NCBI GenBank assembly: GCA_041660305.1
Contig: JBAZWO010000001.1
Coordinates: forward strand, 290,268 to 354,267
Direction: 5' to 3'
Length of the DNA: 64,000 bases
Source of the DNA: Patescibacteria group bacterium
GTDB lineage: Bacteria; Patescibacteriota; Patescibacteriia; UBA9570
A program made the translations under genes and the position numbers. The notes under the pieces were generated by a model. It worked only from the letters and a program-made list of their open reading frames with translations, was not told the DNA's origin and ran no database searches. Shown here piece after piece: positions 14,096 through 62,019 of the stretch; position 1 is the stretch's first letter, and every line of letters begins with the position of its first letter.

Positions 14096-14318
14096 CTACC
14101 TCACCTCCCGGCCTCCTCTCCTTAAAACTACCTTCCTCCCTAACCCTCCTTCCTCAAAGGCAGGAGGGAATAATTTCTTTAATTATCATTTCTTATCCCC
14201 CTCTCTCCTTAGAGGAGAGAGGGGGTTGGGGGGAGTGAGGTAGGTTGTTTAGGGGAGAGGGGGTTAGGCCATCGGCTCTGAGGCTCTGGCTCGAAGAGGG
14301 GAGAGGTAGTCTACCTCC
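14096..14318. repeat. GC-rich modular palindromic element, composite locus R3 (inverted partner of R4)
   Basis: It starts CTACCTCACCTCCC and ends GAGAGGTAG/CTACCTCC. About 170 bp match the reverse complement of 15677-15857. The rpsR stop codon (14311-14313) lies at its edge. Confidence 0.85.
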
Positions 14319-15676: not shown

Positions 15677-15857
15677 CTACCTCTATCCCCAACCCTTTCC
15701 CCTAAACAACCTACCTCACTCCCCCAACCCCCTCTCTCCTCTAAGGAGAGAGGGGTATAAGAAATGATAATTAAAGAAATTATTCCCTCCTGCCTTTGAG
15801 GAAGGAGGGTTAGGGAAGAAGGTAGTTTTAAGGAGAGGGGGCTAGGGGGTGAGGTAG
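15677..15857. repeat. GC-rich modular palindromic element, composite locus R4 (inverted partner of R3)
   Basis: It starts CTACCTCTATCCCC and ends GGGGGTGAGGTAG. It is the reverse complement of most of R3, including the AT-rich core aataatttctttaattatcatttcttat. Confidence 0.85.
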
Positions 15858-18212: not shown

Positions 18213-18244
18213 TTCCCCCTTTAGGGGGTTAGGGGGCTGGGGCC
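18213..18244. repeat. GC-rich palindromic element fragment, locus R5 (gatC tail / gatA leader)
   Basis: Contains the CCCCC-TTTA-GGGGG hairpin (18215-18228) plus TTAGGGGGCTGGGGCC. The gatC stop (18221-18223) sits in the hairpin loop. Confidence 0.7.
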
Positions 18245-18655: not shown

Positions 18656-18740
18656 GACCCTTCCCCCTACCCCCTTCCCTGCAAGGCAGGGGGTTTAACT
18701 CCATCCCTCTTGGCAGGAGGGAGGGCTGGGGTGGGAGGTC
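18656..18740. repeat. GC-rich palindromic element, locus R6 (inverted partner of R7)
   Basis: 85 bp, GACCCTTCCCCCTACCCCC...GGGGTGGGAGGTC. It differs at only 2 positions from the reverse complement of 21109-21193. Confidence 0.9.
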
Positions 18741-21108: not shown

Positions 21109-21193
21109 GACCTCCCTCCCCAGCCCTCCCTCCTGCCAAGAGGGAGGGAGTTAAACCCCCTGCCTTGCAGGGAAGGGGGTAGGGGGAAGGGTC
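21109..21193. repeat. GC-rich palindromic element, locus R7 (inverted partner of R6)
   Basis: 85 bp, GACCTCCCTCCCCAGCC...GGGGGAAGGGTC. The ligA TGA stop (21192-21194) overlaps its last bases. Confidence 0.9.
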
Positions 21194-23180
21194 ATTTTAT
21201 TAATTTTAGGAATTCCTGTTCAGATAAAATTTTCACTCCTAATTTTTTCGCTGTATTATATTTCGAGCCCGGCTCTTCTCCGGCTACTACATAATCGGTG
21301 CTTTTGCTCACGCTACTGGAAATTTTGCCGCCGGCTTGGCGGATTTTAGCTTTGGCTTCGTCCCGCAACATGGTTTTTAGAGTGCCGGTTAGCACAAAAG
21401 TTTTGCCGGTTATCTTATTGGTAGAGACAGATTGCAATCTGTCTCTACCAATTACGGATTGCACCTGAACATATTTCAATAATTCATCTAATTGAGCTTG
21501 CTGTTTTTTATTATGAAAATAATCATAAACACTTTTGGCTACTATTGGACCAATTTCTGGAATAGCTTGTAATTGTTCCAAATTATTATTACGTAATGCG
21601 GTGATGGTGGTAAATTGATTTGCTAACAAAATAGCGGTTTCTTCACCTACATGGCGAATACCTAAGGCATATAACAAACGAGGCAATGATACGTTTCGAG
21701 CTTGTTGAATTTCTTGCACCAAATTAGCGGCCGATTTATCGGCAAACCGATCTAGCGGCTCTAATACTACTTTGGTTAATTTAAAAATATCAGCAAAATT
21801 ATTCACTAACCCGGCTTGCATTAATTGATCGATTATTTTCGGTCCTAAACCTTCAATATCCAAGCCTTTTTTAGACACAAAATGATATAAGCGCTCTTGT
21901 TCCTGGGCAAAACACGCTGGATTAGTACAGTAATACGCTACTTCACCGGTTTTACGCGTTACTGCCGCGCCACAAACCGGACATTTATTTGGAAACATGT
22001 ATGGCTTACTATGTTTTGGTCGTAATGCCGGCAACACCTGCACTACATCGGGAATAATATCACCGGCTTTTTCTATAATTACCGTATCGCCTATTCGAAC
22101 ATCTAGCCGCTTGATTTCATCTTCATTATGCAATGTAGCCCGAGATACTGTAGAGCCAGCTACGGTAACCGGTCGTAAATGCGCTACCGGTGTTAACGCG
22201 CCAGTGCGCCCTACTTGCACTTGAATGTCTGCTACAATAGTAGTGGTTTGTTGTGCCGGGAATTTGTATGCCACTGCTCCGCGTGGCGCTTTACCTACCA
22301 CGCCTAATTGTTTAAAAATATTAATATTATCCACATTTATCACCATACCGTCTATCCAATAGGGTAATTTTTCTCTTATTTTCATTAATTGTTCGTAATG
22401 TTTTTGTACAGCGGCTAAATTATTACAACGTAAATTATTAGCATTAGACGGAAAACCTAATGTTTGTAAATATTCGTGCACCGCGGAATGATTTAAAATG
22501 GCCAAATTGGTTGCGCAATCATAGGCCATAAAGCTCAATTTCCTAGCCGCTACTACTTTAGGATCCAGCTGGCGAATACTGCCGGCGGCTACGTTTCTTG
22601 GGTTAGCGAATTTTTGTTCCGCTGTTTTATTAATCAGCTCAAATTGCTGTTTGGTCATGTACACTTCTCCTCTTACTTCTATGTGTTCTGGGTAATCCCC
22701 TTGCAACTGTAACGGTATTGCCTCAATGGTTTTTAAATTTTCGGTAACATCTTCACCAATTTTACCATCGCCCCGGGTGGAACCACGAACAAATTTACCT
22801 TGTTTATATTCTAACGCTACCGCTAAACCGTCCATTTTTATTTCTGTGTAATAAGCTAATGGCTCGTTAGTAAGCTTGGTTAAACGCTGTTCCCAAGCTT
22901 GTAATTCTGCAAAAGAAAAAATGTCGTTCAATGATAGCATTTTTACCGCGTGTGTTACTTTGGAAAAATTAGCCAATGGCAAACCACCAACTCGCTGACT
23001 GGGTGAATCCGGTGTAATTAAATCTGGATATTGATTTTCTAACTGTGTTAATTCATGTTTTAAAGAATCCAGCGCCGCTTCCGAAATTTCTTGTTTATCT
23101 AATACATGATAAAGATAACGATAATGCTCTATTTCTTTACACAGCTGTTTTAGACGAGTTTTAGCTTGGGATTTGGTCAT
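21192..23180 (-). CDS. ligA: NAD-dependent DNA ligase
   Basis: 662 aa with the adenylation motif EIKMDGLAV, a Zn finger CPVCG...CTNPAC, HhH repeats and a C-terminal BRCT domain (GKTFVLTGTL). Confidence 0.93.
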   Translation of the reverse strand: MTKSQAKTRLKQLCKEIEHYRYLYHVLDKQEISEAALDSLKHELTQLENQYPDLITPDSPSQRVGGLPLANFSKVTHAVKMLSLNDIFSFAELQAWEQRLTKLTNEPLAYYTEIKMDGLAVALEYKQGKFVRGSTRGDGKIGEDVTENLKTIEAIPLQLQGDYPEHIEVRGEVYMTKQQFELINKTAEQKFANPRNVAAGSIRQLDPKVVAARKLSFMAYDCATNLAILNHSAVHEYLQTLGFPSNANNLRCNNLAAVQKHYEQLMKIREKLPYWIDGMVINVDNINIFKQLGVVGKAPRGAVAYKFPAQQTTTIVADIQVQVGRTGALTPVAHLRPVTVAGSTVSRATLHNEDEIKRLDVRIGDTVIIEKAGDIIPDVVQVLPALRPKHSKPYMFPNKCPVCGAAVTRKTGEVAYYCTNPACFAQEQERLYHFVSKKGLDIEGLGPKIIDQLMQAGLVNNFADIFKLTKVVLEPLDRFADKSAANLVQEIQQARNVSLPRLLYALGIRHVGEETAILLANQFTTITALRNNNLEQLQAIPEIGPIVAKSVYDYFHNKKQQAQLDELLKYVQVQSVIGRDRLQSVSTNKITGKTFVLTGTLKTMLRDEAKAKIRQAGGKISSSVSKSTDYVVAGEEPGSKYNTAKKLGVKILSEQEFLKLIK
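21418..21451. repeat. 34-bp perfect palindrome inside ligA (GTAGAGAC family)
   Basis: TTGGTAGAGACAGATTG|CAATCTGTCTCTACCAA. It encodes IGRDRLQSVSTN in the linker before the BRCT domain. Confidence 0.85.
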
Positions 23181-23205: not shown

Positions 23206-23279
23206 TCCCCCTCTCCTCAGAGGAGAGGGGGTTAGGGGGTGAGGTAGGATGTTTAGGGGAGGTAAAGAGGGAGAGGTAG
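23206..23279. repeat. GC-rich modular palindromic element, locus R8
   Basis: Contains CCCCCTCTCC-TCAGA-GGAGAGGGGG, then TTAGGGGGTGAGGTAG and GAGAGGTAG. It lies between the ligA start and the stop of the last pilin gene. Confidence 0.8.
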
Positions 23280-28351: not shown

Positions 28352-28357
28352 ACCCTA

Positions 28358-28421: not shown

Positions 28422-28426
28422 AATTT

Positions 28427-29638: not shown

Positions 29639-29653
29639 GGTAATATGATTAAA

Positions 29654-31390: not shown

Positions 31391-31396
31391 AAATAA

Positions 31397-32293: not shown

Positions 32294-32907
32294 GGCGTAG
32301 TTAAATTACGTTGATAAACCTGTAATAACAAGGTGAAACTATCGGCTCCCGGACTATATGATAACGAGCTTAATTCTAATATCCGAGCATTATTTTCTAG
32401 TTGCTGCAATAATTTCTTAAAATCTTCATAATTAGTATTATTGCCCACGATATTAACCGTTACTTGCGTACGCGTAAAACCTTTTGGCACACCGGTATTA
32501 TTTGTTGCTCCGCTTGCCGGACTTGTAGTAGGACTAGTTGGTGCAGTATTAGCAATATTAATGCTTTGCACAGTAAAATTAGTCTTGCTAAACACTGCTT
32601 CAATTTCGGCAAATAATTGCTCGGTTGTAGCTGCCGGCAAAACCTGATTAACCACCACGAGCAATCGTTTATCCAATTGTTGATAATATTGCTCCATAGT
32701 TTTTAAATCTGCTAAATATTGTTGGCGTTGCTCTAACACAGTTACGGATTGTTGGTAAGTTTGCTTGCCAGAATTTTGAAATTTTACATATTGCGGATAA
32801 ATAATAAAATATCCACCAAATAAAATAAGTACTCCAAATATAATGGCTAAACTATAAGCAAAATATTTATCTACTATTTGATATATTTTATTTTTTGAAA
32901 TATCCAT
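32290..32907 (-). CDS. pilO: PilO-like pilus alignment protein
   Basis: 205 aa with a single TM helix, a coiled-coil and a small C-terminal domain, positioned after pilN. Confidence 0.55.
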   Translation of the reverse strand: MDISKNKIYQIVDKYFAYSLAIIFGVLILFGGYFIIYPQYVKFQNSGKQTYQQSVTVLEQRQQYLADLKTMEQYYQQLDKRLLVVVNQVLPAATTEQLFAEIEAVFSKTNFTVQSINIANTAPTSPTTSPASGATNNTGVPKGFTRTQVTVNIVGNNTNYEDFKKLLQQLENNARILELSSLSYSPGADSFTLLLQVYQRNLTTP

Positions 32908-34420: not shown

Positions 34421-34436
34421 TAGACTATAAGCTATT

Positions 34437-35558
34437 TTATACTATTTCACGCATCGCTAAACCAATGGCCACCGATAAACGTGGGCCAATTTCGCTAAGC
34501 ACAGATTTTAATTCTACCGGATACACCACTCTAGCCCAAGGATCACCAATTACTACTTTCATATTTAAAACTTGCGACAAATATTGTGGTAAATTAGGTA
34601 ACCAAGCTGAGCCACCAGTTAGAATTATTTTTTCAATTTGATAACTGCTCTGATTATGATAAAGATTCAACACATACCGAATTTCGTTCACTACTGAGGC
34701 TACCATAAATTCAATGCGTTTGGGAATTTGGTTGCCCGTAGCCGTAGACGGAATTAAACCAAAATCACGTTTAAATTGCTCGGCTCTATCTACATCTACA
34801 TTTAAACTAGTAGCCACGGTTTTAGTAATAGCCTGCCCGCCTAAATCGATGCTACGATTTACTACTGGCACGCTAGCTACTACTACCGAAATATTGGTAG
34901 TAGCCGAACCAATATCCACCATCATCATTGGCATTCGATCGTGTCCTACTAATGACCGTTCCATGGCAAAAGCTTCGGTTTCCAAACTAATCAAATTCAT
35001 TCCGGCCATCTTAAAAATATCAATGTAATGATTCACTAAATCAGCTGGTGCGGCCGTTAATAATATTTTGTGATACTTGCGTGGTTGACTAGTAATTTGT
35101 GCCTGATTATTACTATCATTAGCACTAACATTAGCCGCTGGCATAGCCCCAGCCATAAAACCTGGCTCGTTATCTAATAATTTCCAATCCAAGATCATTT
35201 TCTCAATCGGCATTGGTACAAATTTTTTCGCTTCCCATTGCACCGCGGCGTCCAATTCCCGCTTGTTCATTTCTGGTAACGTAATAACCGAAGAAAACAC
35301 CGTGTAACTAGGCAAGGCCGCTACCACATTATTAGTAGTAACTTTGGCTTTATCAGCCACTTGTTTAATAGTGGCCACAATGTTTTGTTTGGCTTCCGGA
35401 CTGTTAAATTTCAATAACTTGCTCGGCCGCTCAATATAACCATAGGTAACCAATTTTGGCCGCCCTTTATCATTGTGCAATTCCGCCATTTTTAAAGACG
35501 AACTGCCAATGTCGATACCAATGTAATTATCCGATAAATGTAATGCCATACTGCGCAT
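34437..35558 (-). CDS. pilM: Type IV pilus assembly protein PilM (actin-like ATPase fold)
   Basis: 373 aa with the IGIDIGSSSLKMAEL phosphate-1 motif and PilM-like length. Confidence 0.85.
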   Translation of the reverse strand: MRSMALHLSDNYIGIDIGSSSLKMAELHNDKGRPKLVTYGYIERPSKLLKFNSPEAKQNIVATIKQVADKAKVTTNNVVAALPSYTVFSSVITLPEMNKRELDAAVQWEAKKFVPMPIEKMILDWKLLDNEPGFMAGAMPAANVSANDSNNQAQITSQPRKYHKILLTAAPADLVNHYIDIFKMAGMNLISLETEAFAMERSLVGHDRMPMMMVDIGSATTNISVVVASVPVVNRSIDLGGQAITKTVATSLNVDVDRAEQFKRDFGLIPSTATGNQIPKRIEFMVASVVNEIRYVLNLYHNQSSYQIEKIILTGGSAWLPNLPQYLSQVLNMKVVIGDPWARVVYPVELKSVLSEIGPRLSVAIGLAMREIV

Positions 35559-38500: not shown

Positions 38501-40585
38501 GGCTTGCGTAGTGCCGAAACCAAAACGATCACCTTGTGCACCAGTAGGAACAGTAGTGGTATAAACTGACTGGCCGTTTTTATATAGTGTTACTTGGCCA
38601 CCACTATAGCTAATAGCCATGTGCTGCCATGTATCATAGGTAACTGGCACATTGGTATTGATAAAATAAGGCTGTGTCCAACTACCGTTACTAATGTAAT
38701 AATTATTTTGATAAATTTGAATGTTTCTACCATTGCTGTTATCACTTAACACAAAATGATAATTTGTGTCGTAATCTGCAACTGTAGCTGGTTTAGTTGG
38801 CTTAATCCAAACAGACCAAGTGGTGTTAGGCATAACACTATAGTTTAAATTAAGCCTTGGCGAGCTATAATCGTTACTAATATATTGATTAGTCTTTGTA
38901 AACGACGCTCCTTTAGCAAATACTGTATTAATATTTAATGTTGGGCAATTGTAAGACCCTCCCTGTTCAACGCCCAATACAGTTAGTGTGTGAATACCAC
39001 AGGTAAATTTATTGTTATCGGTAGTGCTAGCTTTATTAACAAATAAATTTGTGTTTTCATCGAGATGCCACAAGCCCACGATATCGTTCATGGACAGATT
39101 GTTGCTATAGCCTGTTTCTGAAGCACCAAAATCTGGGAGTGGTTTTTGGTAGGCCTGATAAGGTTGCCAACCTAAATAGTCCCATACCGTATTACTGTAA
39201 CCAGAATCTTTTATAGAAGAGGTAAACGTACCAGCTGTAACATATTTTCCTAAGCCATCATCAGCTAATTGCAAAAACGCTGTGCCGCCTGTACTAGCAA
39301 TGTCCGTATCATCATAATCTCCTCCGTCGTTAAAATTATTAGCCGCCGAATCTTCAATATCTGTAGAAGTAGTAATAGTAGCTCCTTGCACAGTAACATT
39401 AGATAATACCGGTGTAACACCAGAATCACTGGTAATAAAATCGGCTTTATATTGAATGTATTGGCTGGTATCCATTAATAAATTTTGAAACACTGGTGCC
39501 TCGTTAGTAGTATTTCCAGCATCAGTAAAAAAAGATCCACTAGTACCATCTGGCCCCATATAATTTCCTTGGCTACAAGTAGCATCGTTACATGCCCGTA
39601 ACTGAAATTTTATATCCGCCACTCCCCGCGCATACATATTTTCAATCTCCGCTTGCTCTAGCGTCCGATTAAACACCGCCACTTCGTCCATTTGCCCATG
39701 ATATTGATTGGCAGTAATGTTTGCGCCAGTATTCCCTCCCAACGTAAATTGGGTTCCTTGTGCCGTAATAGCCGCAACCGTTGTAGAAAATTGTAGTATC
39801 CCGTTTTTATAAAAACTAAGTTTTTTATTATCAAATACAACTACTAAATGCTGCCACTTATCATAATCTACTGTCACTGGTGTATATATAAAATTCCAAT
39901 TACCATAATAAAAAGAATAATAAAGTGATTGGGACGTGGCAGTACTATTTGGCCTATTTATTTGAATACCACGACCAGCATTAGCATCACTAATTACATA
40001 GTGTTGCTGACCATCATTGTTACTTGCGGTCGGTTTAATCCAAACTGACCAAGTGGTAGTAGGTAAAGTACTAGGATTTAATGGAGTGGTTATGTACTGT
40101 CGCTGCGCGTTAAAATTAACGCTAGTACCAAATTTACCAGTCGGTTCAAGCGCTGGACAATAAGTATTGTATGTTGTCGCGCAAGTGCCATTATTTAACC
40201 CCACTAGATTAGCCGTATCTTTAAAAGGGGCTGTAGCTTCATCTAAATGCCACAAGCCCACAATACCGTTCATGGACAGATTGTTGCTATAGCCTGTTTC
40301 TGAAGCACCAAAATCTGGGAGTGGTTTTTGGTAGGCTTGTTGTGGTTGCCAACTAAACTTACTCCAATCGGTTACGCCGCCAGAATTTTTAATATTTGAA
40401 GTATAGGTTCCTGATAACAATGTTTTATTATTCAGTTCTACCGCGTTAGCAACATTTAATTTAGTGTTACTAGTATAAGCACCGGCATCAAATTCGGCTT
40501 TTGTATCATCGGTAGCTAAATACGCCAAACTTAACCTTGGCAACAACACAAACACTAGCCCAAACATGATAATTCTTGCTTTCAT
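35594..40585 (-). CDS. Giant secreted protein with two LamG/ConA-like lectin domains; first gene of the pilus locus
   Basis: 1663 aa with signal peptide MKARIIMFGLVFVLLPRLSLA. It carries a duplicated roughly 394-aa unit. Each unit ends in the LamG_3-type motif W.H....YDG..L.LY.NG...QY.G.MDEVAVF.R.L...E.ENMY. Confidence 0.7.
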   Translation of the reverse strand: MKARIIMFGLVFVLLPRLSLAYLATDDTKAEFDAGAYTSNTKLNVANAVELNNKTLLSGTYTSNIKNSGGVTDWSKFSWQPQQAYQKPLPDFGASETGYSNNLSMNGIVGLWHLDEATAPFKDTANLVGLNNGTCATTYNTYCPALEPTGKFGTSVNFNAQRQYITTPLNPSTLPTTTWSVWIKPTASNNDGQQHYVISDANAGRGIQINRPNSTATSQSLYYSFYYGNWNFIYTPVTVDYDKWQHLVVVFDNKKLSFYKNGILQFSTTVAAITAQGTQFTLGGNTGANITANQYHGQMDEVAVFNRTLEQAEIENMYARGVADIKFQLRACNDATCSQGNYMGPDGTSGSFFTDAGNTTNEAPVFQNLLMDTSQYIQYKADFITSDSGVTPVLSNVTVQGATITTSTDIEDSAANNFNDGGDYDDTDIASTGGTAFLQLADDGLGKYVTAGTFTSSIKDSGYSNTVWDYLGWQPYQAYQKPLPDFGASETGYSNNLSMNDIVGLWHLDENTNLFVNKASTTDNNKFTCGIHTLTVLGVEQGGSYNCPTLNINTVFAKGASFTKTNQYISNDYSSPRLNLNYSVMPNTTWSVWIKPTKPATVADYDTNYHFVLSDNSNGRNIQIYQNNYYISNGSWTQPYFINTNVPVTYDTWQHMAISYSGGQVTLYKNGQSVYTTTVPTGAQGDRFGFGTTQAFGTSGKNQYYGDMDEVAVFKRALSATEVENMYMRGAVQFGVQLRVCDDVNCDTENFTGPNGDSTYYNDLDSNADGAPYYALANMKQQYIQYKLFFNTSDTAVTPKLQSVALKGTGSAETTNNSVPLIDWSQCRVEQGETTITDTGENKTSVTVTLDKSLTNITKALLLVNSTGDSNVVNAADHLVSGYISSASELVFERIGTAGTAQISYTLVECKLDEFSVQRGEITINNEESFADSNDLTPIVDSARSLVLVSSRTADTQVTEKNGLVTGKLKNNKTVEVARGGSTATTLARYEVVTFSESSNVKILAGETAIPANFSDVSATVDSLNASQDRIWLYCSYNTTGDSIAAAAVGCNNTDGGNTAEFSRSEAGEYVNTINYYAIAFPENTVITQQNVVENNSTESDGERYDQEITLPKVVDTTNKAFAFVTNTTKGTGQEFPRNRWLTQLTAKDKITASFWRSDENGESDLNNQYWQVIQFPLYTNAQGYGWIGNAAEETCVPSVLLPGKCGGVGFISFASENSVATDTPKYGVQLEIGDDCAENCLIKGFAWVGNYAVSDVFVDKAKTLGWLEFQPDLTSKPDFVDKTAYWDERTGVVSGWARWTSISNHGKDLYNVNDWGWVKLRGDVKDSSGNVTGNYGVYYDTTARQFSGFSWNGNGTDGANNFITGSGLGWMRFDADVSSATKAWLQTLYGDVYAKKGFTANTTPPVGQYNATYLIQANDTITGFTSEFAEKNATDYAKNPAYGNVNVPTNNSTQVYRGSIGDLHVSELIEQAKQQGTAYNSCIELMNALNTLSINHISLGGKVYYCKTDAINNKLIINNNLIFANTPDKLGSGTVVVEGDLEIAANSFYYDTSISNIYNIASVAWIATGKITIKPAVTKLAGAYIALDNPTDDSIATFITDPSTLQLEIKGLVLARKFNFGRKNIGTESGNKASERIIYDTRLITNPPPGLEDLSKSLPTIK
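39065..39154. repeat. 90-bp near-identical patch, copy B (inside the giant ORF)
   Basis: 88/90 identical to 40247-40336. It encodes AYQKPLPDFGASETGYSNNLSMNDIVGLWH. Confidence 0.9.
40247..40336. repeat. 90-bp near-identical patch, copy A (inside the giant ORF)
   Basis: See copy B. The offset is 1182 bp (394 codons). Confidence 0.9.
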
Positions 40586-41914: not shown

Positions 41915-42667
41915 TTATTTCAAACACCGGCGCCTCCTTGTTATGGTGAGAAAAAGGGCGGTAAGAACCACCGCCAGACCCAGGGGCGGTCTGGCGGCCG
42001 ACTGCGTCGTAGAGCACGAGCAGCCGGGAACGGGGGGCGGCGAGACGAACTGATCGTCGTCGCCCGTGGTGTCGTCATCCCCCGCAGTGGCCGGGGGGGT
42101 GGGAGAAACGTCCGGAGTCGGCGAGACCTCCGGCGTGGGGGTGGGCGAGTCCCCCGTGGCATCGTCGTCGCCCGTCGAGTCGTCATCCCCGCCTTCAGGG
42201 GTCGGGGAGACGGGATCCGGAGTCGGCGTGGCCGTGGGCTCCGGGGTGGGGGGAGGCGAGTCCCCCGTGGCATCGTCATCGCCCGTGGCGTCATCGTCAC
42301 CCGCCACCGGTGTGGCTGGGGGGGTGGGAGAAACGTCCGGAGTCGGCGAGACCTCCGGCGTGGGGGTCGGCTCCGGAGTCGGACTGACCTCCGGGATGGG
42401 GGTGGAGATACAGTCCCCCGCGACCGACCCCTCGTCGGTCAGACCATCACAGTCGTTGTCTATACTGTCGCAAACTTCGGGAGCTCCCGGATATGTGTCC
42501 GGGTCGTCATCCCGACAGTCCCCAGTTGCACAACTAGGGTAGTCTGCCGAACACGACGACCCGTAGGCTCCCCATCCGTCGGCATCCTCATCGGTCCAAA
42601 CGGCCGACGCGGACGGGACGACGTATAGTGCTCCGAGAATCGTAAGGATCATGAACAAGTGCTTCAT
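41915..42667 (-). CDS. Secreted Pro/Thr-rich repeat protein with one MopE-type motif and a Cys-containing C-terminal sorting-signal-like tail
   Basis: 250 aa with signal MKHLFMILTILGALYVVPSASA and a tandem repeat EVSPTPDVSPTPPAT...GDDDxTGDDD. The C-terminus reads GCSCS, then a hydrophobic helix, then RRRRCLK. An AAGGAGGG SD is present. Confidence 0.65.
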   Translation of the reverse strand: MKHLFMILTILGALYVVPSASAVWTDEDADGWGAYGSSCSADYPSCATGDCRDDDPDTYPGAPEVCDSIDNDCDGLTDEGSVAGDCISTPIPEVSPTPEPTPTPEVSPTPDVSPTPPATPVAGDDDATGDDDATGDSPPPTPEPTATPTPDPVSPTPEGGDDDSTGDDDATGDSPTPTPEVSPTPDVSPTPPATAGDDDTTGDDDQFVSPPPVPGCSCSTTQSAARPPLGLAVVLTALFLTITRRRRCLK

Positions 42668-50905: not shown

Positions 50906-51067
50906 CTACCTCACCTCCCGGCCTCCTCTCCTCTACCTTCCATCCCCGACCCTTCCCTCCTATAAAGAGGGAAGGGAGAATTACGAAATTATTCCCTCCT
51001 GCCTTAGAGGAAGGAGGGTTAGGGAGGAAGGTAGTTTTAAGGAGAAGGGGGCTAGGGGGAGAGGTAG
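50906..51067. repeat. GC-rich modular palindromic element, composite locus R10
   Basis: The 5' end matches the 5' end of R3 (CTACCTCACCTCCCGGCCTCCTCTCCT). The 3' half matches the 3' half of R4 (ATTATTCCCTCCTGCCTT.GAGGAAGGAGGGTTAGGGA...GAGGTAG). Confidence 0.85.
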
Positions 51068-52367: not shown

Positions 52368-52440
52368 GCCCTGGTAGCTCAGTGGATAGAGCATTCGGTT
52401 GCGGTCCGAAGGGTCGCAGGTTCGATTCCCGCCCAGGGCA
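52368..52440 (+). tRNA. tRNA-Arg (anticodon GCG)
   Basis: Hand-folded cloverleaf of 73 nt. The acceptor stem is GCCCTGG/CCAGGGC and the D arm is GCTC-AGTGGATA-GAGC, with A20. The anticodon arm is TTCGG-TTGCGGT-CCGAA with GCG at 52401-52403. The T arm is GCAGG-TTCGATT-CCCGC with one A-C mismatch. The discriminator is A. No CCA is encoded. Confidence 0.9.
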
Positions 52441-52448: not shown

Positions 52449-52487
52449 ACGTAGAGACGCATTGCAAGGCGTCTCTACGTTTTTTTT
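52449..52487 (+). terminator. Intrinsic terminator after tRNA-Arg (member of the GTAGAGAC palindrome family)
   Basis: ACGTAGAGACGC-ATTGCAAG-GCGTCTCTACGT followed by T8. Confidence 0.8.
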
Positions 52488-52963: not shown

Positions 52964-54391
52964 ATGGAACAACCTAATAATCCACTAGCCAATTCTGAAC
53001 AAACCAATCCAATTGTAGACCATCTGGAACAAGACATGGCTAATTTATTAAATAAAGATGGCTTGAATATTCGCTTGCCAAAAGCAGCCATGTTAAGCGT
53101 GCTTAAAAAAGCTTTAGGCCAGGTTAAGTTAACGCCAGAAAATATTACTAAATTAGAAAATGCTCACGTGCAACTAGCTGTTATTAATAAAATAGCCTTA
53201 GCTGATTTAGCTAATCGAGTGGCTAATGGCATGGGCGAATCATTAGATGAAGCGCCACCAGCTGGCGTAACCGAAGCCGTGCAGGCTTTGCCAAATCAAT
53301 TTAATTCTTTTGGCAACATGCCTGATAATCTACCAACCATGGCTATGCCTGCTACTTCAAGACCGCCTACAAATTTAGCTCACCAAACTCAACCAAGGCC
53401 AAGTAATGATATGGCTATGCCCGGCGAAGGCGTTGGTGATGATGAACCAACTCCTAATAAACCGGCTGCCGGCCAACAAGCAACCACACAACCAACTCAA
53501 CCAGCTAACGCCCCGGCCAATTTCCCCGGCTTAAACGCTCCGTCTGCTCAACCGGTAATGCCTACCGCGCAACCTGGCGCTGATAGCAGCTTCCCTTATC
53601 AAGGCACGCCTGAACAGCAAAAACAAGCCGAACCGCCTTTTGCTCAAAATGCATTAGCTAATCAAGACGCACAGCCTACTCCTCCACCAACTGCTGGATC
53701 ACCCACTCCAGCTGGTGCCACTAATACTCCACCTCCTGGTACTCCGCCACCGGCTGCCGGTGCACCTGGCACGCCTAATAATCAACCGGCCGGCGCCACT
53801 TCTAATGCCGCTAATCCTGCAACACAACCACAGGCCCAAACCGGCGGCCAACCTACTGCTGGAACAACCCCTAATAATAACACAGCTACTCAAAAAAAAA
53901 CCAAGCAAGTTGGCCCAATAGGTAACCTATTCAATCGTATACATAGACGCGGAAAAATAAATGCAGTCAATACAAAAATTAAGGATACACAAAATAAATT
54001 AAAAGATGTATCATTTCAGTTTGCTACAGAATACTTTGTTATTGTTTGTTTTAAAGAATTACTAGATTTTTTAATGACACTATTAGATGCTACCGGCTTC
54101 ATGATTATTATTTGCACGGCTATTAGTGCCGCCTGTGGCTCTGTAATCGGCTTAATTATTTGGTGGCAAACTAAAACTTGGAAAAAAGAAGTATTTAATA
54201 ATAAAATAGCGCTCCAAGCTATAGTAGCTTTTCTTTTAGAGTTAATTCCTATTATACAATTACTACCATTAAATATTGCTATGGCTTACGCCTTAACTAT
54301 TCAAACCGAACGGCGCAAAAAACATCATGAAAATAAATTAGACAAACTACAAAAAGAAAAACATAAGTTAATCAATCAGAAAAAAATATGA
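52964..54391 (+). CDS. Hypothetical Pro/Gln/Ala/Thr-rich protein with C-terminal TM helices
   Basis: 475 aa. A central roughly 200-aa low-complexity region is followed by 2-3 TM helices. The stop overlaps the recG start (ATGA). Confidence 0.45.
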   Translation: MEQPNNPLANSEQTNPIVDHLEQDMANLLNKDGLNIRLPKAAMLSVLKKALGQVKLTPENITKLENAHVQLAVINKIALADLANRVANGMGESLDEAPPAGVTEAVQALPNQFNSFGNMPDNLPTMAMPATSRPPTNLAHQTQPRPSNDMAMPGEGVGDDEPTPNKPAAGQQATTQPTQPANAPANFPGLNAPSAQPVMPTAQPGADSSFPYQGTPEQQKQAEPPFAQNALANQDAQPTPPPTAGSPTPAGATNTPPPGTPPPAAGAPGTPNNQPAGATSNAANPATQPQAQTGGQPTAGTTPNNNTATQKKTKQVGPIGNLFNRIHRRGKINAVNTKIKDTQNKLKDVSFQFATEYFVIVCFKELLDFLMTLLDATGFMIIICTAISAACGSVIGLIIWWQTKTWKKEVFNNKIALQAIVAFLLELIPIIQLLPLNIAMAYALTIQTERRKKHHENKLDKLQKEKHKLINQKKI

Positions 54392-56502
54392 TGCTGACCG
54401 GCCTGCACGGCGTTGGCACGGCTATACAACAAAAACTGCGCCGGTTAGCTATTACTACTTTAACCGATTTGTTATATCACTTTCCGGCTCATTACGAGGA
54501 TTTTTCAAATATCACCGCTATTACTGCTTGCGCAACGGATCAAGCCGTTACCATATTAGGCACAATAAAAAAAATTAGCACACGGCGTAGCTGGAAACGG
54601 CGCCGGTTTACCATTACCGAAGCTACCATTACAGATGCTAGTGGTGACATGAGGGTAATTTGGTTTAATCAAGCATATATTGCCGAACAACTACCGGCCA
54701 ACACTTTGGTTTATTTATCCGGAAAAATAACCCTTTACCAAAAAAAATTAGTGCTTAATAACCCTGTTTATGAACTATACAAAACCGAAACGGTTCATAC
54801 GGCCAGAATTGTACCGCGTTACGCGTTAACTACCGGTTTAACCCATAAACAACTACGCTATTTTATAAAACAAGCCCTACAAATACAAACTACTAATTAC
54901 TCCATTATTAAAGACTGGCTACCAGCTAATATATTAGATCAATATCAATTACTGCCCATTACTCAAGCTCTGCAAGCCATTCATTTTCCAAATAGCTGGG
55001 CAGAATTAGAGCAAGCCAAATATCGTTTAGGGTTTGATGAATTATTATTAGTACTGTTATTTGTACAAGCTACGCGCGCTAGTTTAGCTAAAGAAACGGC
55101 TCCTAGTATCCCGTTTGCCAAAACGCCTACTAAAACATTAGTGGATCGGCTCCCTTTTCAGCTCACGAATGATCAACGCGTAGCTGCTTGGGATATTATT
55201 AAAGACTTACAGCACACTACGCCCATGAACCGCTTACTAGAAGGCGATGTGGGCTCTGGTAAAACCGTAGTGGCCGCGTTGGCTATGTACAACGTAGCCC
55301 TAGCTTGTTATCAAGCCGTGCTTATGGCGCCTACTGAATTATTAGCCGAACAGCATTATCACACGATTAAACAATTATTTAGCCATACTAATATTAACGT
55401 GGGCTTGTGGACGCGTAGTAAAAAGATTGCTGCCTCGTTTCCAAGCGTCCTACCTCACCCCCCAACCCCCTCTCCTCTGAGGAGAGGGGGAGAATTTCTC
55501 CCTTCTCCTTTGAGGAGAAGGGCTGGGGATGAGGTAGGTAGCGGCGAGATTATTATTGGCACCCAAGCTTTGATTCAAAAAAATGTTCATTTTCCAAAAT
55601 TGGCGTTGGTGGTGGTGGATGAACAACACCGTTTTGGTGTTACCCAACGACAACAGCTAAAACAAGTAGCGACGCCCCGCGGGGCGTCTCTACTGACCCC
55701 TCATTTATTATCCATGACCGCTACGCCGATTCCCCGATCACTCGCCTTAACTATTTACGGTGATTTAGATTTATCATTATTAGCCCAGCTCCCAAAAAAC
55801 CGTAAACCTATTATTACTAAATTGTTTTCCACTGAACAACGTTTAGTTTTACAAAAAATTATTACTGAACACTTAGCTAATCAAGCGCAAATTTATGTAG
55901 TAGTACCAAGAATTGAAGAAAAAGATGACGGCGCTCGTTCTGTACAGACTGAGTATAAACACTGGCAAAAATTATTTCCAAATTATCGAATAGCTTATTT
56001 ACACGGCCAATTGCCAACCGAAGAAAAACAAGCGGTTATGGAGCAATTCCGCGCTGGAAAAATTGCGGTGTTAATAACTACCACGGTAATTGAAGTAGGG
56101 GTAGACGTACCTAATGCTACCGTAATGATTATAGAAGGGGCTGAACACTTTGGTCTAGCGCAGCTACATCAATTACGCGGTCGCGTGGGACGCTCACACC
56201 AACAATCCTATTGCTATGTTTGTACTGACGTGGCGTATCCCATAAAACGTTTGCAATATTTTGTAAAAAATCATAATGGGTTTGCCTTAGCAGACTACGA
56301 TTTAAAACTGCGCGGCCCCGGCGCTGTCTACGGCGCCATCCAATCCGGCTACTTCAACCAATTTAAAATAGCTACCTTAAGTAACACCAAACAACTCCAA
56401 CAAGTTAAAGCCGCTGCCGCCACACTTTACCCAAACATTAAACGCTACCCCGCTTTACACGCCAAACTGCAACACATGATAAAGCGGGTGCATTTAGAGT
56501 GA
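54388..56502 (+). CDS. recG: ATP-dependent DNA helicase RecG (carrying two palindromic-element insertions)
   Basis: 704 aa with a wedge domain, motif I GDVGSGKT, DEQHRFGV, TATPIPRSLA and QLRGRVGR. The reading frame is intact across the repeat at 55450-55537. Confidence 0.9.
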   Translation: MMLTGLHGVGTAIQQKLRRLAITTLTDLLYHFPAHYEDFSNITAITACATDQAVTILGTIKKISTRRSWKRRRFTITEATITDASGDMRVIWFNQAYIAEQLPANTLVYLSGKITLYQKKLVLNNPVYELYKTETVHTARIVPRYALTTGLTHKQLRYFIKQALQIQTTNYSIIKDWLPANILDQYQLLPITQALQAIHFPNSWAELEQAKYRLGFDELLLVLLFVQATRASLAKETAPSIPFAKTPTKTLVDRLPFQLTNDQRVAAWDIIKDLQHTTPMNRLLEGDVGSGKTVVAALAMYNVALACYQAVLMAPTELLAEQHYHTIKQLFSHTNINVGLWTRSKKIAASFPSVLPHPPTPSPLRRGGEFLPSPLRRRAGDEVGSGEIIIGTQALIQKNVHFPKLALVVVDEQHRFGVTQRQQLKQVATPRGASLLTPHLLSMTATPIPRSLALTIYGDLDLSLLAQLPKNRKPIITKLFSTEQRLVLQKIITEHLANQAQIYVVVPRIEEKDDGARSVQTEYKHWQKLFPNYRIAYLHGQLPTEEKQAVMEQFRAGKIAVLITTTVIEVGVDVPNATVMIIEGAEHFGLAQLHQLRGRVGRSHQQSYCYVCTDVAYPIKRLQYFVKNHNGFALADYDLKLRGPGAVYGAIQSGYFNQFKIATLSNTKQLQQVKAAAATLYPNIKRYPALHAKLQHMIKRVHLE
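55450..55537. repeat. GC-rich modular palindromic element, locus R11, inside the recG ORF
   Basis: CTACCTCACCCCCC...GGGGATGAGGTAG with hairpins CCCCCTCTCC-TCTGA-GGAGAGGGGG and CCCTTCTCC-TTTGA-GGAGAAGGG. It is translated as LPHPPTPSPLRRGGEFLPSPLRRRAGDEVG. Confidence 0.85.
55666..55693. repeat. GTAGAGAC-family palindrome inside recG
   Basis: GTAGCGACGCCCC|GCGGGGCGTCTCTAC, with one stem mismatch. It encodes VATPRGASLL between helicase motifs II and III. Confidence 0.75.
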
Positions 56503-57876
56503 TCACGTACAATCATCCGCTGAATTAGCTGTATTATAATCAGAACAATATGGTTCTGTATAAAGTTTGTTTTCATCAGGTATGCCACGTGAAAAACCGC
56601 AACCTTGATCGGCATTTTTACAACCTAATTCTTCATATTTATCATATCCATTAGGACATTTATCCACCGTACTATTTGTTGTGCATGTTGCAAAAGTAGT
56701 ATCTCTATTAGCAGAATTTAAACAATAATAATTAGCCGACACTCTTTCAGGCATATCGCTCCTTTTATAAGCCGGATTTAATAGAACACATTTATTCATT
56801 TTATTTGTGGCACCAACATAATTATCGCCACATCGTTGTAAATAATTAAAATGCCACCATTCTCCGGAATCACGAACAAATTTTCCACCAGATAATTGCT
56901 CCATAATTTTTTTCAACATATCCTGATTAGCTTTTAAATCTTCTTTATCAGGATTACCACTTCCTCCCGGACCGCCATTATTATACATAGCCGCTCTATA
57001 GTCTTTAGATGAAAAACCAGCTGAAGGAGCACCTTCTAACCATAAATCCAGAGCTACTCCTGATTCATGTTTACTAGTGCATACAGCGCTGGCTGGATTG
57101 CATGTTCTACAATCAGTAGTACAACAACCAACGCCAGCCGTACAACCTTCGGCTTTTGCCTTAAGATAACAGTCGCGCAGCTTAACTTGACTTTCATGTG
57201 ACCGATAAGCACTACCAACACCAATTTTACAAGTAGGACACAACGCTGCCTGTCCATAACCTGCACCGTTACGCATAGCATCAGTAATTTCTTCTAACCC
57301 ATCAGCGACTGATTTACATGCTTGTAATCCATTACCAATTAATCCTGCCGTATTTGGTATAGTTACAATAGGAGTTGGTACTGGTGTATCACAATAAGCA
57401 TCTTCTGATTTTGGAACAATCTTTAACACCGCTAACTTCATGTTCACAAAATTAGGATTAATCAAATATAAGATACTGTAGGAAAATAAGGCTAAGACTA
57501 AACCAATCACAGCGGAAGTAATGAGTTCTTTGCCTTGAGTAATGCTTTGCTCATTACCAGCGGAAGTTAACCACATTACTCCACCGGCCATAATTAACAC
57601 CGTAGCAATAATGCCTACTAAGCCTAAAGCGTAACGATAAACCAAGTTAATATATTGGCCTAAATTAGTTATGGTAGTTTGGGTACCTAGTGGTTGTTCT
57701 AGGGTGTATGGTTCCACTAAACCACCAATGTATTCTTCATCAACGGATTGCTTTGGATCTGATCCATCTGACGCTAGCACTAAACTAGGCAACAAACAAA
57801 ACCAACATAGCACAATTAATAATAATTTAGTTTGTTTTAAAAATTTATAATAAAAATTACTTACTAATAACAGCAT
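56503..57876 (-). CDS. Fusion: T4SS-pilin-like two-TM N-module plus Cys-rich M15 (VanY-like) peptidoglycan peptidase
   Basis: 457 aa. The N-module (residues 67-153) is shared with the 58624-60057 gene. LAS/M15 motifs present are GSAYRSHESQ, SKHESGVALDL and EWWHFNY. There are more than 25 Cys. Confidence 0.7.
   Translation of the reverse strand: MLLLVSNFYYKFLKQTKLLLIVLCWFCLLPSLVLASDGSDPKQSVDEEYIGGLVEPYTLEQPLGTQTTITNLGQYINLVYRYALGLVGIIATVLIMAGGVMWLTSAGNEQSITQGKELITSAVIGLVLALFSYSILYLINPNFVNMKLAVLKIVPKSEDAYCDTPVPTPIVTIPNTAGLIGNGLQACKSVADGLEEITDAMRNGAGYGQAALCPTCKIGVGSAYRSHESQVKLRDCYLKAKAEGCTAGVGCCTTDCRTCNPASAVCTSKHESGVALDLWLEGAPSAGFSSKDYRAAMYNNGGPGGSGNPDKEDLKANQDMLKKIMEQLSGGKFVRDSGEWWHFNYLQRCGDNYVGATNKMNKCVLLNPAYKRSDMPERVSANYYCLNSANRDTTFATCTTNSTVDKCPNGYDKYEELGCKNADQGCGFSRGIPDENKLYTEPYCSDYNTANSADDCT
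57418..57678. repeat. 261-bp near-identical module, copy A
   Basis: It differs from 59644-59904 at 2 positions by eye (57421 C/T and 57493 T/C). Both differences are synonymous. Confidence 0.9.
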
Positions 57877-58623: not shown

Positions 58624-60057
58624 CTACATGGCATCTTTACATTTAGGTTTACTAGTATACAAATTACTAACACCGCCATAATTCTTGACGCTGGAAAAAT
58701 CCCAAAATGGTATATCGTCTGCACTGGGAGTATCATACATACAAGGCCCTGTGTCTTTAAACATTAGAGTAAAATCAGCTACTGTGGGACACACAATATT
58801 AGAACCACCACAAATAGCGTAACTATAAACTGTATCTTTATCAGCGGTACCCATATCAGCCTCATCTGTCTCAGCTTCGCTAGTACAATATCCATTAATA
58901 GCCACTTCTATAGCACCCTCCGCCGTATTTACCGGTCTACATAGTTGATTATCCTGACAAATATCATCACGCATTTTCAAAAATTGATCGCCGCTTAATT
59001 TTGGATTTTCACTATGACAACGCTCCGGATAATCTGCTGGACAATAATAAGAGGCTACTCCAGCACCACAATTAATACTAGATTTCCAGATATTCCAACC
59101 ACAATGATAAGCTCCTAATATAGTTCTTGAATCAGTTGAATTTAATCCTTTACTAAAATCAGCAAATATTTTTACACCAGCACACACGCCTACTTCTGGA
59201 TTCGTAGCCATAAAATTACAAATACTTTGCCAGTCTGTTCCATTAGACTGGTTATAAGCTAAGCCTGCTTTATCGGCGCATACTGCAATAATTTGATTAT
59301 TGTCTGAAATATTTTGTTCTTTTCTGGAATTCCATAAATATCCAGGTAATGTACCCATCAAACCACAGGCATTGGATTTTGGATCGGGATTATGTGCATT
59401 AATACAATAACCACTTTCATGTTTAACAATAGCTTTCATCATAGTTAAACTAAGCCCTGAATTAAACGCCTTCACATATTTAGTAATCCACTTATTTAAG
59501 TCTGTACTACTATAACTAGTTTTCGCACCACTAGGTAATGGTATAGTACTACCTCCTGAACAAGTTTTTAAACCAGTTTTTTCAATTAACGGCTTATCAT
59601 TCACACAAGCATTATCTGGATTAGCTAATTCAGCTGGAACAGGAATTTTTAACACCGCTAACTTCATGTTCACAAAATTAGGATTAATCAAATATAAGAT
59701 ACTGTAGGAAAATAAGGCCAAGACTAAACCAATCACAGCGGAAGTAATGAGTTCTTTGCCTTGAGTAATGCTTTGCTCATTACCAGCGGAAGTTAACCAC
59801 ATTACTCCACCGGCCATAATTAACACCGTAGCAATAATGCCTACTAAGCCTAAAGCGTAACGATAAACCAAGTTAATATATTGGCCTAAATTAGTTATGG
59901 TAGTGATGGAACTAAGGGGTTGTTCTAGGGTATAGTTGATATCAGTAACATATTGATCCTCCGTTTGGTCAGAATCTGCCGCTTGTCCTACAAAACCAAA
60001 ACTAAGCCCAGCTAATATCACAAAAACTATTAAAAACTTACGCAACAAAAACTTCAT
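58624..60057 (-). CDS. Fusion: T4SS-pilin-like two-TM N-module plus Cys-rich lytic transglycosylase (SLT/VirB1-like)
   Basis: 477 aa. SLT motifs present are IVKHESGY (catalytic Glu-Ser) and ACGLMG. The N-module is identical in protein sequence to the paralogue. Confidence 0.7.
   Translation of the reverse strand: MKFLLRKFLIVFVILAGLSFGFVGQAADSDQTEDQYVTDINYTLEQPLSSITTITNLGQYINLVYRYALGLVGIIATVLIMAGGVMWLTSAGNEQSITQGKELITSAVIGLVLALFSYSILYLINPNFVNMKLAVLKIPVPAELANPDNACVNDKPLIEKTGLKTCSGGSTIPLPSGAKTSYSSTDLNKWITKYVKAFNSGLSLTMMKAIVKHESGYCINAHNPDPKSNACGLMGTLPGYLWNSRKEQNISDNNQIIAVCADKAGLAYNQSNGTDWQSICNFMATNPEVGVCAGVKIFADFSKGLNSTDSRTILGAYHCGWNIWKSSINCGAGVASYYCPADYPERCHSENPKLSGDQFLKMRDDICQDNQLCRPVNTAEGAIEVAINGYCTSEAETDEADMGTADKDTVYSYAICGGSNIVCPTVADFTLMFKDTGPCMYDTPSADDIPFWDFSSVKNYGGVSNLYTSKPKCKDAM
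59644..59904. repeat. 261-bp near-identical module, copy B
   Basis: See copy A. The offset is 2226 bp. Confidence 0.9.
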
Positions 60058-61960: not shown

Positions 61961-61975
61961 ATTGATTGATTTATT

Positions 61976-62019
61976 TCTCCCCCTCTCCAGAAAGGAGAGG
62001 GGGCTGGGGGGTGAGGTCG
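61976..62019. repeat. GC-rich modular palindromic element, locus R12
   Basis: CCCCCTCTCC-AGAAA-GGAGAGGGGG then CTGGGGGGTGAGGTCG. It lies between the VirB4 stop and the next gene start. Confidence 0.8.

Follow-up and report, generated by a model that had tools for sequence, protein, structure and literature searches.

A 64,000-nucleotide stretch of the genome of a Patescibacteria group bacterium (assembly GCA_041660305.1, contig JBAZWO010000001.1, positions 290,268 to 354,267; hereafter the window) encodes the helicase RecG from a gene that contains, in frame, a 90-bp palindromic element. Judged by its sequence, this element is a head-to-head pair of triplex motifs of the G/C-rich intrastrand type (TMs), belonging to the class known as the PIT motif, TMECO, or BoxC-like repeats, and is not private to this genome. 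Very probably, the pair was acquired in frame in a permissive loop of RecG and has been kept there as a tolerated passenger in a functional protein. A first-pass annotation made from the DNA letters had described an in-frame translated copy of a dispersed palindromic repeat in an intact recG, inserted relative to orthologues, and our analysis bears out this description. The coordinates of all features are collected in Table 1.

The recG open reading frame (ORF) is unbroken over 704 amino acids, as had been annotated, and the peptide quoted for the insert is encoded exactly so, the protein reading ...AASFPSV-LPHPPTPSPLRRGGEFLPSPLRRRAGDEVG-SGEIIIGTQAL around it. The domains RecG_wedge, DEAD, Helicase_C, and RecG_dom3_C were all detected with Pfam, and GSGKT, DEQH, SMTATPIP, QLRGRVGR, and the C-terminal RGPG..QSG are invariant throughout an alignment of 33 RecG sequences, in agreement with the earlier statement that the helicase motifs are kept. 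The label 'essential' that had been attached to this gene is an unsupported assumption; recG is dispensable in E. coli.

The insert differs from its surroundings in composition, with a GC content of 0.60 as compared with 0.42 in the remainder of recG and about 38% in the AT-rich window. Two of the six frames of the element are stop-free, and the ORF stays open because the element measures exactly 30 codons and is read in one of these two. The inverted repeats at its ends, CCTACCTCA and TGAGGTAGG, continue inwards imperfectly and are terminal repeats of the type seen in transposable elements of the miniature inverted-repeat class (MITEs). These family termini had been recognised at 55450-55537 and turn out to reach one base farther on each side; likewise, the two perfect hairpins reported earlier are present, but their stems, put at 9-10 bp, measure 11 nt in the left unit (loop CAG) and 10 nt in the right unit (loop TTG). 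In both units a second loop leads into a third segment, TTG and GGGGGTGAGGT on the left and CTG and GGGATGAGGT on the right, and no mismatch occurs in stems or third segments. Where the right unit departs from the left one, the differences are matched across all three strands. Folding programs, which score Watson-Crick pairs only, gave -63.9 kcal/mol for the insert as RNA (z = -6.7 against shuffles) and -34.7 kcal/mol as DNA (z = -7.2 against shuffles).

Each unit thus has the same layout, in which a 3-nt loop joins a pyrimidine-rich stem to the complementary purine stem and a 3-nt linker leads on to a G-rich mirror of the latter. This is the anatomy of the TM as defined by Holder et al. (2015, PMC4666352), namely a C-rich stem of 6-15 nt, a loop of 1-6 nt, and a complementary G-rich stem with at most one mismatch, followed by a second loop of 1-6 nt and a G-rich mirror segment (G.G-C and A/T.A-T triads), again with at most one mismatch. 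According to that study, the TM had earlier been named PIT motif and overlaps BoxC, its single strand forms a stable triplex in vitro, TMs are tied to local genome instability, and TMs on opposite strands can form 'palindromic' pairs; in E. coli every copy is intergenic, with no transposase or integrase ever nearby. The hairpin and the mirror third segment are present in both recG units, the motif has far more copies than scrambled sequence, and although the pair is not intergenic like the E. coli copies, location is no part of the motif definition. The TMs of E. coli and of the window share the C-rich stem, a loop of 3-6 nt, the G-rich stem, a 3-nt linker (TTA, CTG, or TTG), and the mirror, and an E. 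coli copy (CCCTCTCCC...GGGAGAGGG-TTA-GGGTGAGGG) follows a near-identical logic to the left recG unit (CCCCCTCTCCT...AGGAGAGGGGG-TTG-GGGGGTGAGGT). In both cases, copies are dispersed and highly conserved, form opposite-strand pairs, and have no transposase nearby. Unlike the TMECO elements, which were counted in proteobacterial genomes, those of the window lie in an AT-rich member of the Patescibacteria, have stems of 10-12 nt, and include one translated pair.

Membership in a real repeat family, as first proposed, is confirmed by counts within the window. The terminus CTACCTCACCCC (at most one mismatch) occurs 12 times where 0.11 occurrences are expected, and a purpose-written finder recovered 14 full TM units as compared with none in 20 shuffles. 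Four of the 14 are mismatch-free, both recG units among them. The recG pair is the one fully intragenic pair, the other 12 units being intergenic or overlapping gene ends. The accompanying idea that the element is particular to this lineage had to be abandoned: the 25-nt core AGGAGAGGGGGYTRGGGGGTGAGGT was found exactly in at least 117 stretches among the matches listed (one genome per species), with fewer than 0.1 chance matches estimated for the approximately 1.2e12 positions searched. Its carriers are Bacteroidota (Hymenobacter, Arcicella, Fibrella), Chloroflexota, Cyanobacteria, Armatimonadota, Planctomycetota, Ignavibacteria, Gemmatimonadota, Proteobacteria, Spirochaetes, and several groups of the candidate phyla radiation (CPR), and the core is also present on 12 viral contigs and on plasmids of cyanobacteria and Hymenobacter. 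The same hairpin lies upstream of the core in every match, often within a head-to-head pair like the recG insert.

The third strand is under a constraint of its own. A covariation claim based on the TM finder was dropped as circular, since the finder demands the mirror strand, and a test on hairpins followed by any G-rich downstream segment, with no mirror strand required, was substituted. In this test the third strand mirrored its own stem at 8.13 of 9 positions versus 6.72 of 9 for other stems, a value reached in none of 20000 permutations; when every distinct stem was counted only once (n = 10), 2 of 20000 did so. Because template copying cannot make mirror symmetry, the result argues for a separate constraint on this strand, as the triplex model predicts.

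Comparison with orthologues identifies the segment as an insertion. The nearest RecG (P0002, 63% identity, at a syntenic locus) is 30 amino acids shorter and aligns with a 31-column gap at the insert, reading ...SSKKI-QPPNPLKGEIVIGTHAL where the window protein reads ...RSKKIAASFPSV-(30 aa)-SGEIIIGTQAL, and without the 90 bp the loop has 15 residues, the same length as in another homologue (P0004). The segment is also shorter in RecG of T. maritima (1GM5, by about 19 residues) and in chain 9wm0 (by about 23), in line with the roughly 20 residues that had been given for known RecG proteins. A homologous peptide in orthologues had been named as the finding that would speak against an insertion, and no peptide of the insert type is present in any of the 119 other closest RecG homologues. 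At the DNA level, the insert matches the intergenic copy at 23206-23254 over 49 nt (94% identity) and the one at 61975-62017 over 43 nt (91% identity). The whole 2115-bp gene is identical base for base in three independent assemblies from different samples and in the metagenome-assembled genome (MAG), which excludes an assembly chimera, the other objection raised at the outset; the three assemblies represent one strain and are silent on polymorphism. On these alignments, the TM pair is shown to have been acquired in the lineage of this genome.

Within the first RecA-like domain, the insertion separates the strand that follows motif Ia from the one leading to motif II; the corresponding site in 1GM5 is between 'LIGATTPS' and 'VVIGTHAL'. 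No part of the alignment varies more in length than the loop ahead of the 'IIIGTHAL' strand (about 8 to about 45 residues), and one homologue (P0014) holds an equally long, low-complexity insert in it that is unrelated. An AlphaFold2 model of the window protein (mean pLDDT 83.7) falls below a pLDDT of 50 at residues 352-379, which it renders as coil, and elsewhere only in two short C-terminal stretches; the Pro/Ser/Gly/Arg-rich insert peptide receives no confident structure. The proposed surface loop is therefore matched, in prediction, by a variable loop modelled as low-confidence coil, and the general architecture of superfamily 2 (SF2) helicases suggests that it faces outward, away from the ATP cleft. 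In the nearest relative, recG reads in frame through a mini-TM of this loop, the 22-mer CCCCCTTTAGGGGGTTAGGGGG (L133 3541-3562, P0002), which encodes QPPNPLKG and lies 7 codons upstream of the insertion point; the same 22-mer is found at the 3' end of gatC in the window, against an expectation of 0.02. Two related genomes have thus fixed different family members at separate positions of one RecG loop, as a permissive-site filter would predict.

In-frame TMs are common in the fetched loci and lie in real genes of several phyla: an open frame with at least 80 codons on each side runs through 22 of 132 motif matches. Hosts confirmed with Pfam are an IcmF-like MeaB-mutase fusion, an NAD-dependent DNA ligase, a molybdopterin oxidoreductase, a penicillin amidase, and a GH38 mannosidase. 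The ligase, LigA of another AT-rich MAG (L101 ~6650-6790), exceeds the LigA of the window by an insert of 32 aa in the adenylation domain, and an entire TM pair is in frame in a UvrD-like protein of a Pseudanabaena plasmid (RefSeq WP_281009861.1; L146 2501-2596). One TM is in frame in valS of a CPR contig from the same samples (L148 4185-4220), and the remaining loci (L022 7268-7449; L105; L108; L117) include the other four hosts.

Translated repeats of other classes have been described before. In the first-pass annotation, in-frame tolerance was regarded as known for the Rickettsia palindromic elements (RPEs) and as new in this lineage with a different element; earlier reports describe it also for repetitive extragenic palindromic (REP) sequences and MITEs. 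Di Nocera, De Gregorio, and Rocco (2013, PMC3733652) found GTAG/CGTC-tagged REPs in frame within genes of several species; more than half of the intragenic REPs are dimers or grouped repeats coding for 20-30 aa, many of the tagged genes act in replication and repair (uvrABCD, recBCD, polA, dnaE2, a DNA ligase), and the repeats were argued to be tolerable in linkers and loops. In-frame MITE fusions were termed 'not unusual' in a 2024 review (PMC10969869), and enterobacterial and Coxiella cases have been published, namely ERIC/RU-1, RU-2, and RU-3 (Delihas 2007, PMC2759123) and QMITE1/2 (PMC5896051). The literature searched contained no account of a triplex motif read in frame, none of repeats of this kind in Patescibacteria, and none naming recG as the gene hit, and the recG insert appears to be the first in-frame case reported for Patescibacteria and for the TM class.

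The recG pair resembles the GTAG/CGTC REPs in being a short, GC-rich palindrome, mostly found as a head-to-head dimer, that adds 20-30 aa in frame, and these REPs likewise have repair-gene hosts, including a DNA ligase, and termini that often give neighbouring ORFs their stop codons. They differ in having an unpaired GTAG or CGTC tag and no mirror third strand, and the GTAG REPs are tied to REP-associated tyrosine transposases (RAYTs), whereas the apparent partner of the TMs is DUF559; recG and Patescibacteria are not among the published cases (PMC3733652). The RPEs (Ogata et al. 2000), on the summaries given in PMC10969869 and PMC3733652, are in-frame palindromes in many unrelated and functional genes of a bacterium with a small genome, their peptides also sitting where the protein fold allows, and the recG insert resembles them in this in-frame tolerance only; by that description they are set apart by a length of about 100-150 bp, a more AT-rich composition, and restriction to Rickettsia with conserved peptides of their own. 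Bacterial MITEs are small, non-autonomous, and mostly intergenic, with terminal inverted repeats and an occasional in-frame fusion (PMC2759123, PMC5896051), but they usually show target-site duplications and have a parent insertion sequence (IS) with matching termini, neither of which was found for the recG element. The recG insert is one more clean case of selfish or structure-forming DNA absorbed as a disordered loop and bears on the origin of loops. Peptides of the kind ...PSPLRRGGE... or ...KERGLGGEV..., when met in an otherwise conserved protein, would help annotation by flagging repeat insertions, not domains.

The only TM-flanked gene found encodes a DUF559 (Vsr-like) endonuclease, and no parent IS with matching termini was found in the 64 kb. 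A Pfam search over essentially all of the approximately 50 window ORFs yielded no transposase, integrase, or RAYT, and at the gathering threshold Rfam returned one tRNA for the window and nothing at the insert. Starting from the exact 25-mer, the association with DUF559 was weak, with the gene in 5 of 117 loci and only 2 matches closer than 300 bp (among the matches listed). Once all TM variants were scored, DUF559 was bracketed by TMs on both sides in 6 of 6 loci, mostly in the outward orientation TM(-)...gene...TM(+) also seen in the solo pair. Those six loci had been selected by TM, and the retest began from DUF559 genes, with 8 loci from the protein database and 10 from Cyanobacteria, Alpha-, Beta-, and Gammaproteobacteria, and Deinococcota, these being on plasmids and chromids with annotation (DUF559 loci of the analysis as a whole: L147, L113, L024, L050, L032, L093, L148, L150-L156, L278-L287). 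In the first 8, a TM lies within 150 bp of 11 of 16 DUF559 ends as compared with 4 of 41 other gene ends (Fisher p = 2e-5). Over all loci pooled, a strict TM lies within 150 bp of a gene end in 13 of the 18 and at both ends in 7; TM density is 4.74/kb near DUF559 ends and 0.51/kb elsewhere in the same loci, a 9.3-fold difference. Because TMs cluster, a pooled p-value overstates independence, and the per-locus counts are safer. The association is statistically solid on a small sample.

Loci negative for strict TMs mostly carry shorter hairpin-plus-G-run look-alikes at the same positions. TM-encoded peptides were found in 2 of 120 DUF559 proteins, a count with no bearing on the link, since the motifs flank the ORFs without overlap. 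DUF559 cassettes stand in operon spacers between umuD and umuC, between sufB and sufC, and in the hpa cluster (L155 2949-3389; L282 1448-1893; L283 1415-1803), and on a Spirulina contig (L113 ~750-1290) a TM-flanked DUF559 segment is in frame in a restriction-modification/methylase-like ORF of 1268 codons. The DUF559 gene of E. coli K-12, ycjD next to fabI, has TMECO #9 at a distance of 168 bp from its 3' end (NC_000913.3 1351204-1351760). We take this ycjD/fabI locus to be the place where BoxC was first described. The arrangement recalls a REPtron, in which a RAYT gene is flanked by its REPs: a small nuclease gene, inverted repeat copies, and solo copies dispersed elsewhere. DUF559 is of the PD-(D/E)xK type and not an HUH/Y1 transposase as in REPtrons. 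It has been grouped with Vsr and a group-I-intron homing endonuclease, and shares its Vsr-like fold with the free-standing homing endonuclease I-Bth0305I (PDB 3r3p) (PMC3424549), from which it differs in having no intron or intein and in a role at TMs that is predicted. The DUF559 association is missing from Holder et al. (PMC4666352); among publications mentioning DUF559 we found none dealing with repeats, and the DUF559-TM link was not found published.

Several further observations concern these genes. The MAG has a second DUF559 paralogue (P0123). On plasmid pGJ3-1 of Photobacterium sp. GJ3, at least 17 TMs of two alternating stem types occupy 1.4 kb (L285 1852-3294), an array that begins 58 bp downstream of a DUF559 gene. 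Many DUF559 homologues are found only on contigs of 0.5-2 kb, and contig L133, from the nearest relative, breaks off within a TM; such short contigs are consistent with repeat-flanked, multi-copy genes that break short-read assemblies.

Tentatively, TMs may be the terminal structures of a tiny, widespread, selfish DUF559 cassette. It is similarly conceivable, though short of probable, that solo TM pairs such as that of recG are gene-less, MITE-like derivatives of such cassettes, spread by nuclease-initiated repair and often fixed in frame where a conserved protein has a permissive loop, perhaps preferentially in repair proteins. Breaks made by the nuclease would be repaired from another TM copy in a homing-like process or by gene conversion, with no classical transposase involved. 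At recG, insertions elsewhere in the gene or in other frames would be removed by selection, which would explain that the one fully intragenic pair among the 14 units of the window sits in a permissive loop. The ribosome would have to unwind a very stable structure in the recG mRNA, and RecG would carry an extra floppy loop of 30 residues on the outer face of the domain and still work. To go by the modelled loop, the insert is most likely a tolerated, neutral passenger. If the cassette proposal is true, DUF559 gains a function and TMs gain a mechanism, and the concentration of TMs at both ends of DUF559 genes turns the question of their spread into simple biochemical and comparative tests.

A number of points weigh against this account, in addition to the clustering of TMs mentioned above. 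No empty-site allele was found, a metagenome scan for RecG relatives giving only 35-38% identity, and with the nearest RecG at 63% the insertion is deduced from alignment and not from polymorphism. The flanks (...AAGCGT / TAGCGGC...) share no direct repeat that would mark a target-site duplication, and no mobilising enzyme was found near recG. That the protein keeps the insert and that this RecG is active are predictions from the sequence, and triplex formation was not shown in vivo by Holder et al. (PMC4666352). As regards DUF559, 5 of the 18 loci have only shorter or degenerate look-alikes and no strict TM nearby; E. coli has 23 TMs and one DUF559 gene examined (ycjD), which means that most TMs are solo. 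The link is an association, with cutting of TMs by DUF559 a putative step, and the data agree equally with DUF559 genes homing into pre-existing TM pairs and with TMs gathering around any small inserted gene.

Among the alternatives to an acquired element, an old native RecG loop that resembles the repeat by chance is effectively refuted. Loop length does vary in orthologues, as the unrelated insert of P0014 illustrates, but 91-94% DNA identity to intergenic copies over 43-49 nt, a perfect triplex-motif anatomy, the jump in GC to 0.60, and a peptide found in no other RecG leave this idea almost no room. It is scarcely more credible that the segment is missing from the product, whether as a chimera, by removal as an intron or intein or through translational bypass, or because recG is a decaying pseudogene. 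GC-rich repeats do confuse short-read assemblies, and the contig L133 ending in a TM and the many DUF559 contigs shorter than 2 kb are examples of this; the gene is nonetheless identical in three assemblies and the MAG, and its catalytic motifs are all intact. Removal would also be needless for a stop-free insert, an intein would need far more than 30 aa and a group I or II intron far more than 90 nt, and Rfam detects nothing at the site. Recruitment of the insert, with the new loop tuning the activity or partners of RecG, or with the mRNA structure, or a polymerase-stalling DNA triplex or cruciform, throttling its expression, is improbable; its outcome could be a repair-deficient and more mutable lineage, as speculated by Di Nocera et al. 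(PMC3733652). In-frame palindromes of the window do lie in DNA-acting genes, two of different families in recG and one in ligA, other in-frame TMs have a UvrD-like helicase and another LigA as hosts, the nearest relative has a mini-TM of its own in the RecG loop, a bias to replication and repair genes was also seen for REPs (PMC3733652), and the recG units are mismatch-free, unlike most intergenic copies. Against recruitment stand the metabolic and other hosts (IcmF-like, molybdopterin oxidoreductase, penicillin amidase, GH38, valS), a peptide that is low in complexity, modelled as disordered, and kept in no other RecG, and the fact that large multidomain proteins with long linkers are easier targets.

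How the pair moved admits two further explanations, of which a REP- or MITE-type non-autonomous transposon, mobilised by a RAYT/IS200-like or other transposase with DUF559 only incidentally linked, is unlikely but the stronger. Most TM termini in this genome end in ...GAGGTAG, which contains the GTAG of RAYT-associated REPs, and the head-to-head dimer is the predominant REP layout (PMC3733652); the absence of a target-site duplication is as expected for IS200/IS605-type movement, and blocks of 66-137 nt that are 95-97% identical between sites imply copy-and-paste of whole units. Yet the 64-kb window holds no transposase of any kind and none lies near the E. coli TMs (PMC4666352), varied bases other than AG follow the motif in other phyla, so that the GTAG tag is not a family feature, and DUF559 is the sole protein found associated with the motif. 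A little less likely again is copying by replication or repair error alone, through template switching or ectopic gene conversion with no dedicated enzyme. TMs are linked to instability, deletions, and rearrangements, with fork stalling and error-prone repair proposed as the cause (PMC4666352), near-identical TM blocks stand at distant sites, and the same RecG loop holds different TM members in two relatives. Template switching, however, yields inverted and not mirror repeats and cannot explain a third strand that tracks its stem; an exact 25-mer across phyla needs transfer of a defined element or strong convergent selection, and the DUF559 association would be left unexplained. Acquisition of a TM pair in frame in a permissive loop remains the preferred reading of the recG insert.

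A second palindrome in recG, announced in the first-pass annotation about 40 codons downstream, is present at the position and with the peptide given there, 43 codons from the insert. It is unrelated to the TMs, as had been stated, but it is not an isolated sequence: it belongs to a dispersed family, here called family B, whose outer stem GTAGAGAC...GTCTCTAC has three copies in the window, one of them in ligA. The recG copy is a 28-bp palindrome with 13-bp arms and one mismatch. Family members share a conserved outer stem around 10 inner nt that vary yet are self-complementary; two inverted CGTCTC sites are contained in it, and the pattern GTAGAGACG-N4-16-CGTCTCTAC occurs in at least 120 stretches in viral contigs alone (L158-L277). 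Its GTAG pairs with a CTAC at the opposite end, and since this GTAG is base-paired, family B may not strictly qualify as a GTAG-REP. At the family B copy, the recG loop exceeds that of the nearest relative by 3 codons and the ligA linker that of E. coli LigA by about 1 residue, and in neither protein does family B behave as a clean insertion. No description of family B was found in the literature, where only cloning primers matched.

Table 1 Features of the triplex-motif family, of family B, and of associated genes in the window
Feature	Position	Strand	Remarks
recG ORF	54388..56502	+	704 aa, 2115 bp, uninterrupted, all helicase motifs
Palindromic TM pair in recG, in frame	55449..55538	.	90 bp, 30 codons, encodes (V)LPHPPTPSPLRRGGEFLPSPLRRRAGDEVG
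Left terminal inverted repeat CCTACCTCA	55449..55457	+	pairs with 55530-55538
Left TM, CCCCCTCTCCT-CAG-AGGAGAGGGGG-TTG-GGGGGTGAGGT	55452..55490	-	zero mismatches, hairpin and mirror third strand
Spacer at centre, between the recG motifs	55491..55499	.	
Right TM, CCCTTCTCCT-TTG-AGGAGAAGGG-CTG-GGGATGAGGT	55500..55535	+	zero mismatches
Right terminal inverted repeat TGAGGTAGG	55530..55538	+	pairs with 55449-55457
Predicted tryptic peptides	RecG residues 345-390		GGEFLPSPLR, AGDEVGSGEIIIGTQALIQK
Family B palindrome in recG, GTAGCGACGCCCC-GC-GGGGCGTCTCTAC	55666..55693	.	in frame, encodes VATPRGASLL
TM pair between efp and ssb, intergenic	14130..14240		14130-14168 minus, 14197-14240 plus
TM pair between rpsF and ndk, intergenic	15714..15823		15714-15756 minus, 15785-15823 plus
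Mini-TM CCCCCTTTAGGGGGTTAGGGGG	18215..18236	+	gatC 3' end; same 22-mer as in RecG loop of relative
TM pair	18659..18737		18659-18693 minus, 18701-18737 plus; 97% identical over 89 nt to 21106-21194
DUF559 (Vsr-like endonuclease) gene, P0121	20726..21100	-	124 aa as annotated; TM pair at 5' end
TM pair against DUF559 5' end and ligA 3' end	21110..21190		21110-21148 minus, 21156-21190 plus
Family B palindrome in ligA (21192..23180, minus)	21421..21448	.	in frame, linker between HhH and BRCT
Solo TM upstream of ligA	23207..23245	+	closest kin of left recG unit (49 nt, 94%)
TM pair downstream of ClpB-like gene, intergenic	50935..51032		50935-50976 minus, 50994-51032 plus
Family B palindrome directly after tRNA gene (52368-52440)	52451..52478	.	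T-run follows, terminator-like
Solo TM between two type IV secretion genes	61979..62017	+	43 nt 91% identical to recG copy

Elsewhere in the window, composite TM blocks of 66-137 nt are 95-97% identical between sites. Two inverted repeats, I1 (137 nt, flanking 14096-15857 and enclosing rpsF-ssb) and I2 (89 nt, flanking 18655-21194), were considered as IS ends and rejected, because TM pairs are palindromic and any two copies score as inverted repeats. Between the 97%-identical 89-nt TM pairs within 18655-21194 lies a 2.4-kb segment with the DUF559 gene and a 497-aa ORF (19002-20495), which has a lipoprotein-like signal, a HEPPH zinc-peptidase motif, no Pfam match, and a GC content of about 52% as compared with 38% in the genome. 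This segment looks horizontally acquired.

Downstream of recG, a 291-nt duplication (57418-57708 and 59644-59934, 97% identical) is common to the 5' parts of two genes resembling type IV secretion system (T4SS) pilins, 56503..57876 and 58624..60057. Their neighbours, including a TraG-like ATPase and a thioredoxin-like protein, make up a conjugation/type IV secretion-like cluster, to which the nearest relative has a syntenic counterpart. The gene at 41915-42667 is atypical in composition (GC about 45%), with direct repeats of 30-110 nt (families D5, D11, D12) and a MopE-like metal-binding motif. A 1663-aa protein (35594-40585) combines Laminin_G_3 domains with internal repeats spaced at about 1.2 kb (D6, D16, D19), and its gene adjoins a type IV pilus cluster at 24106-35558 that encodes prepilins, a prepilin peptidase, and PilB/PilC/PilM-like proteins.

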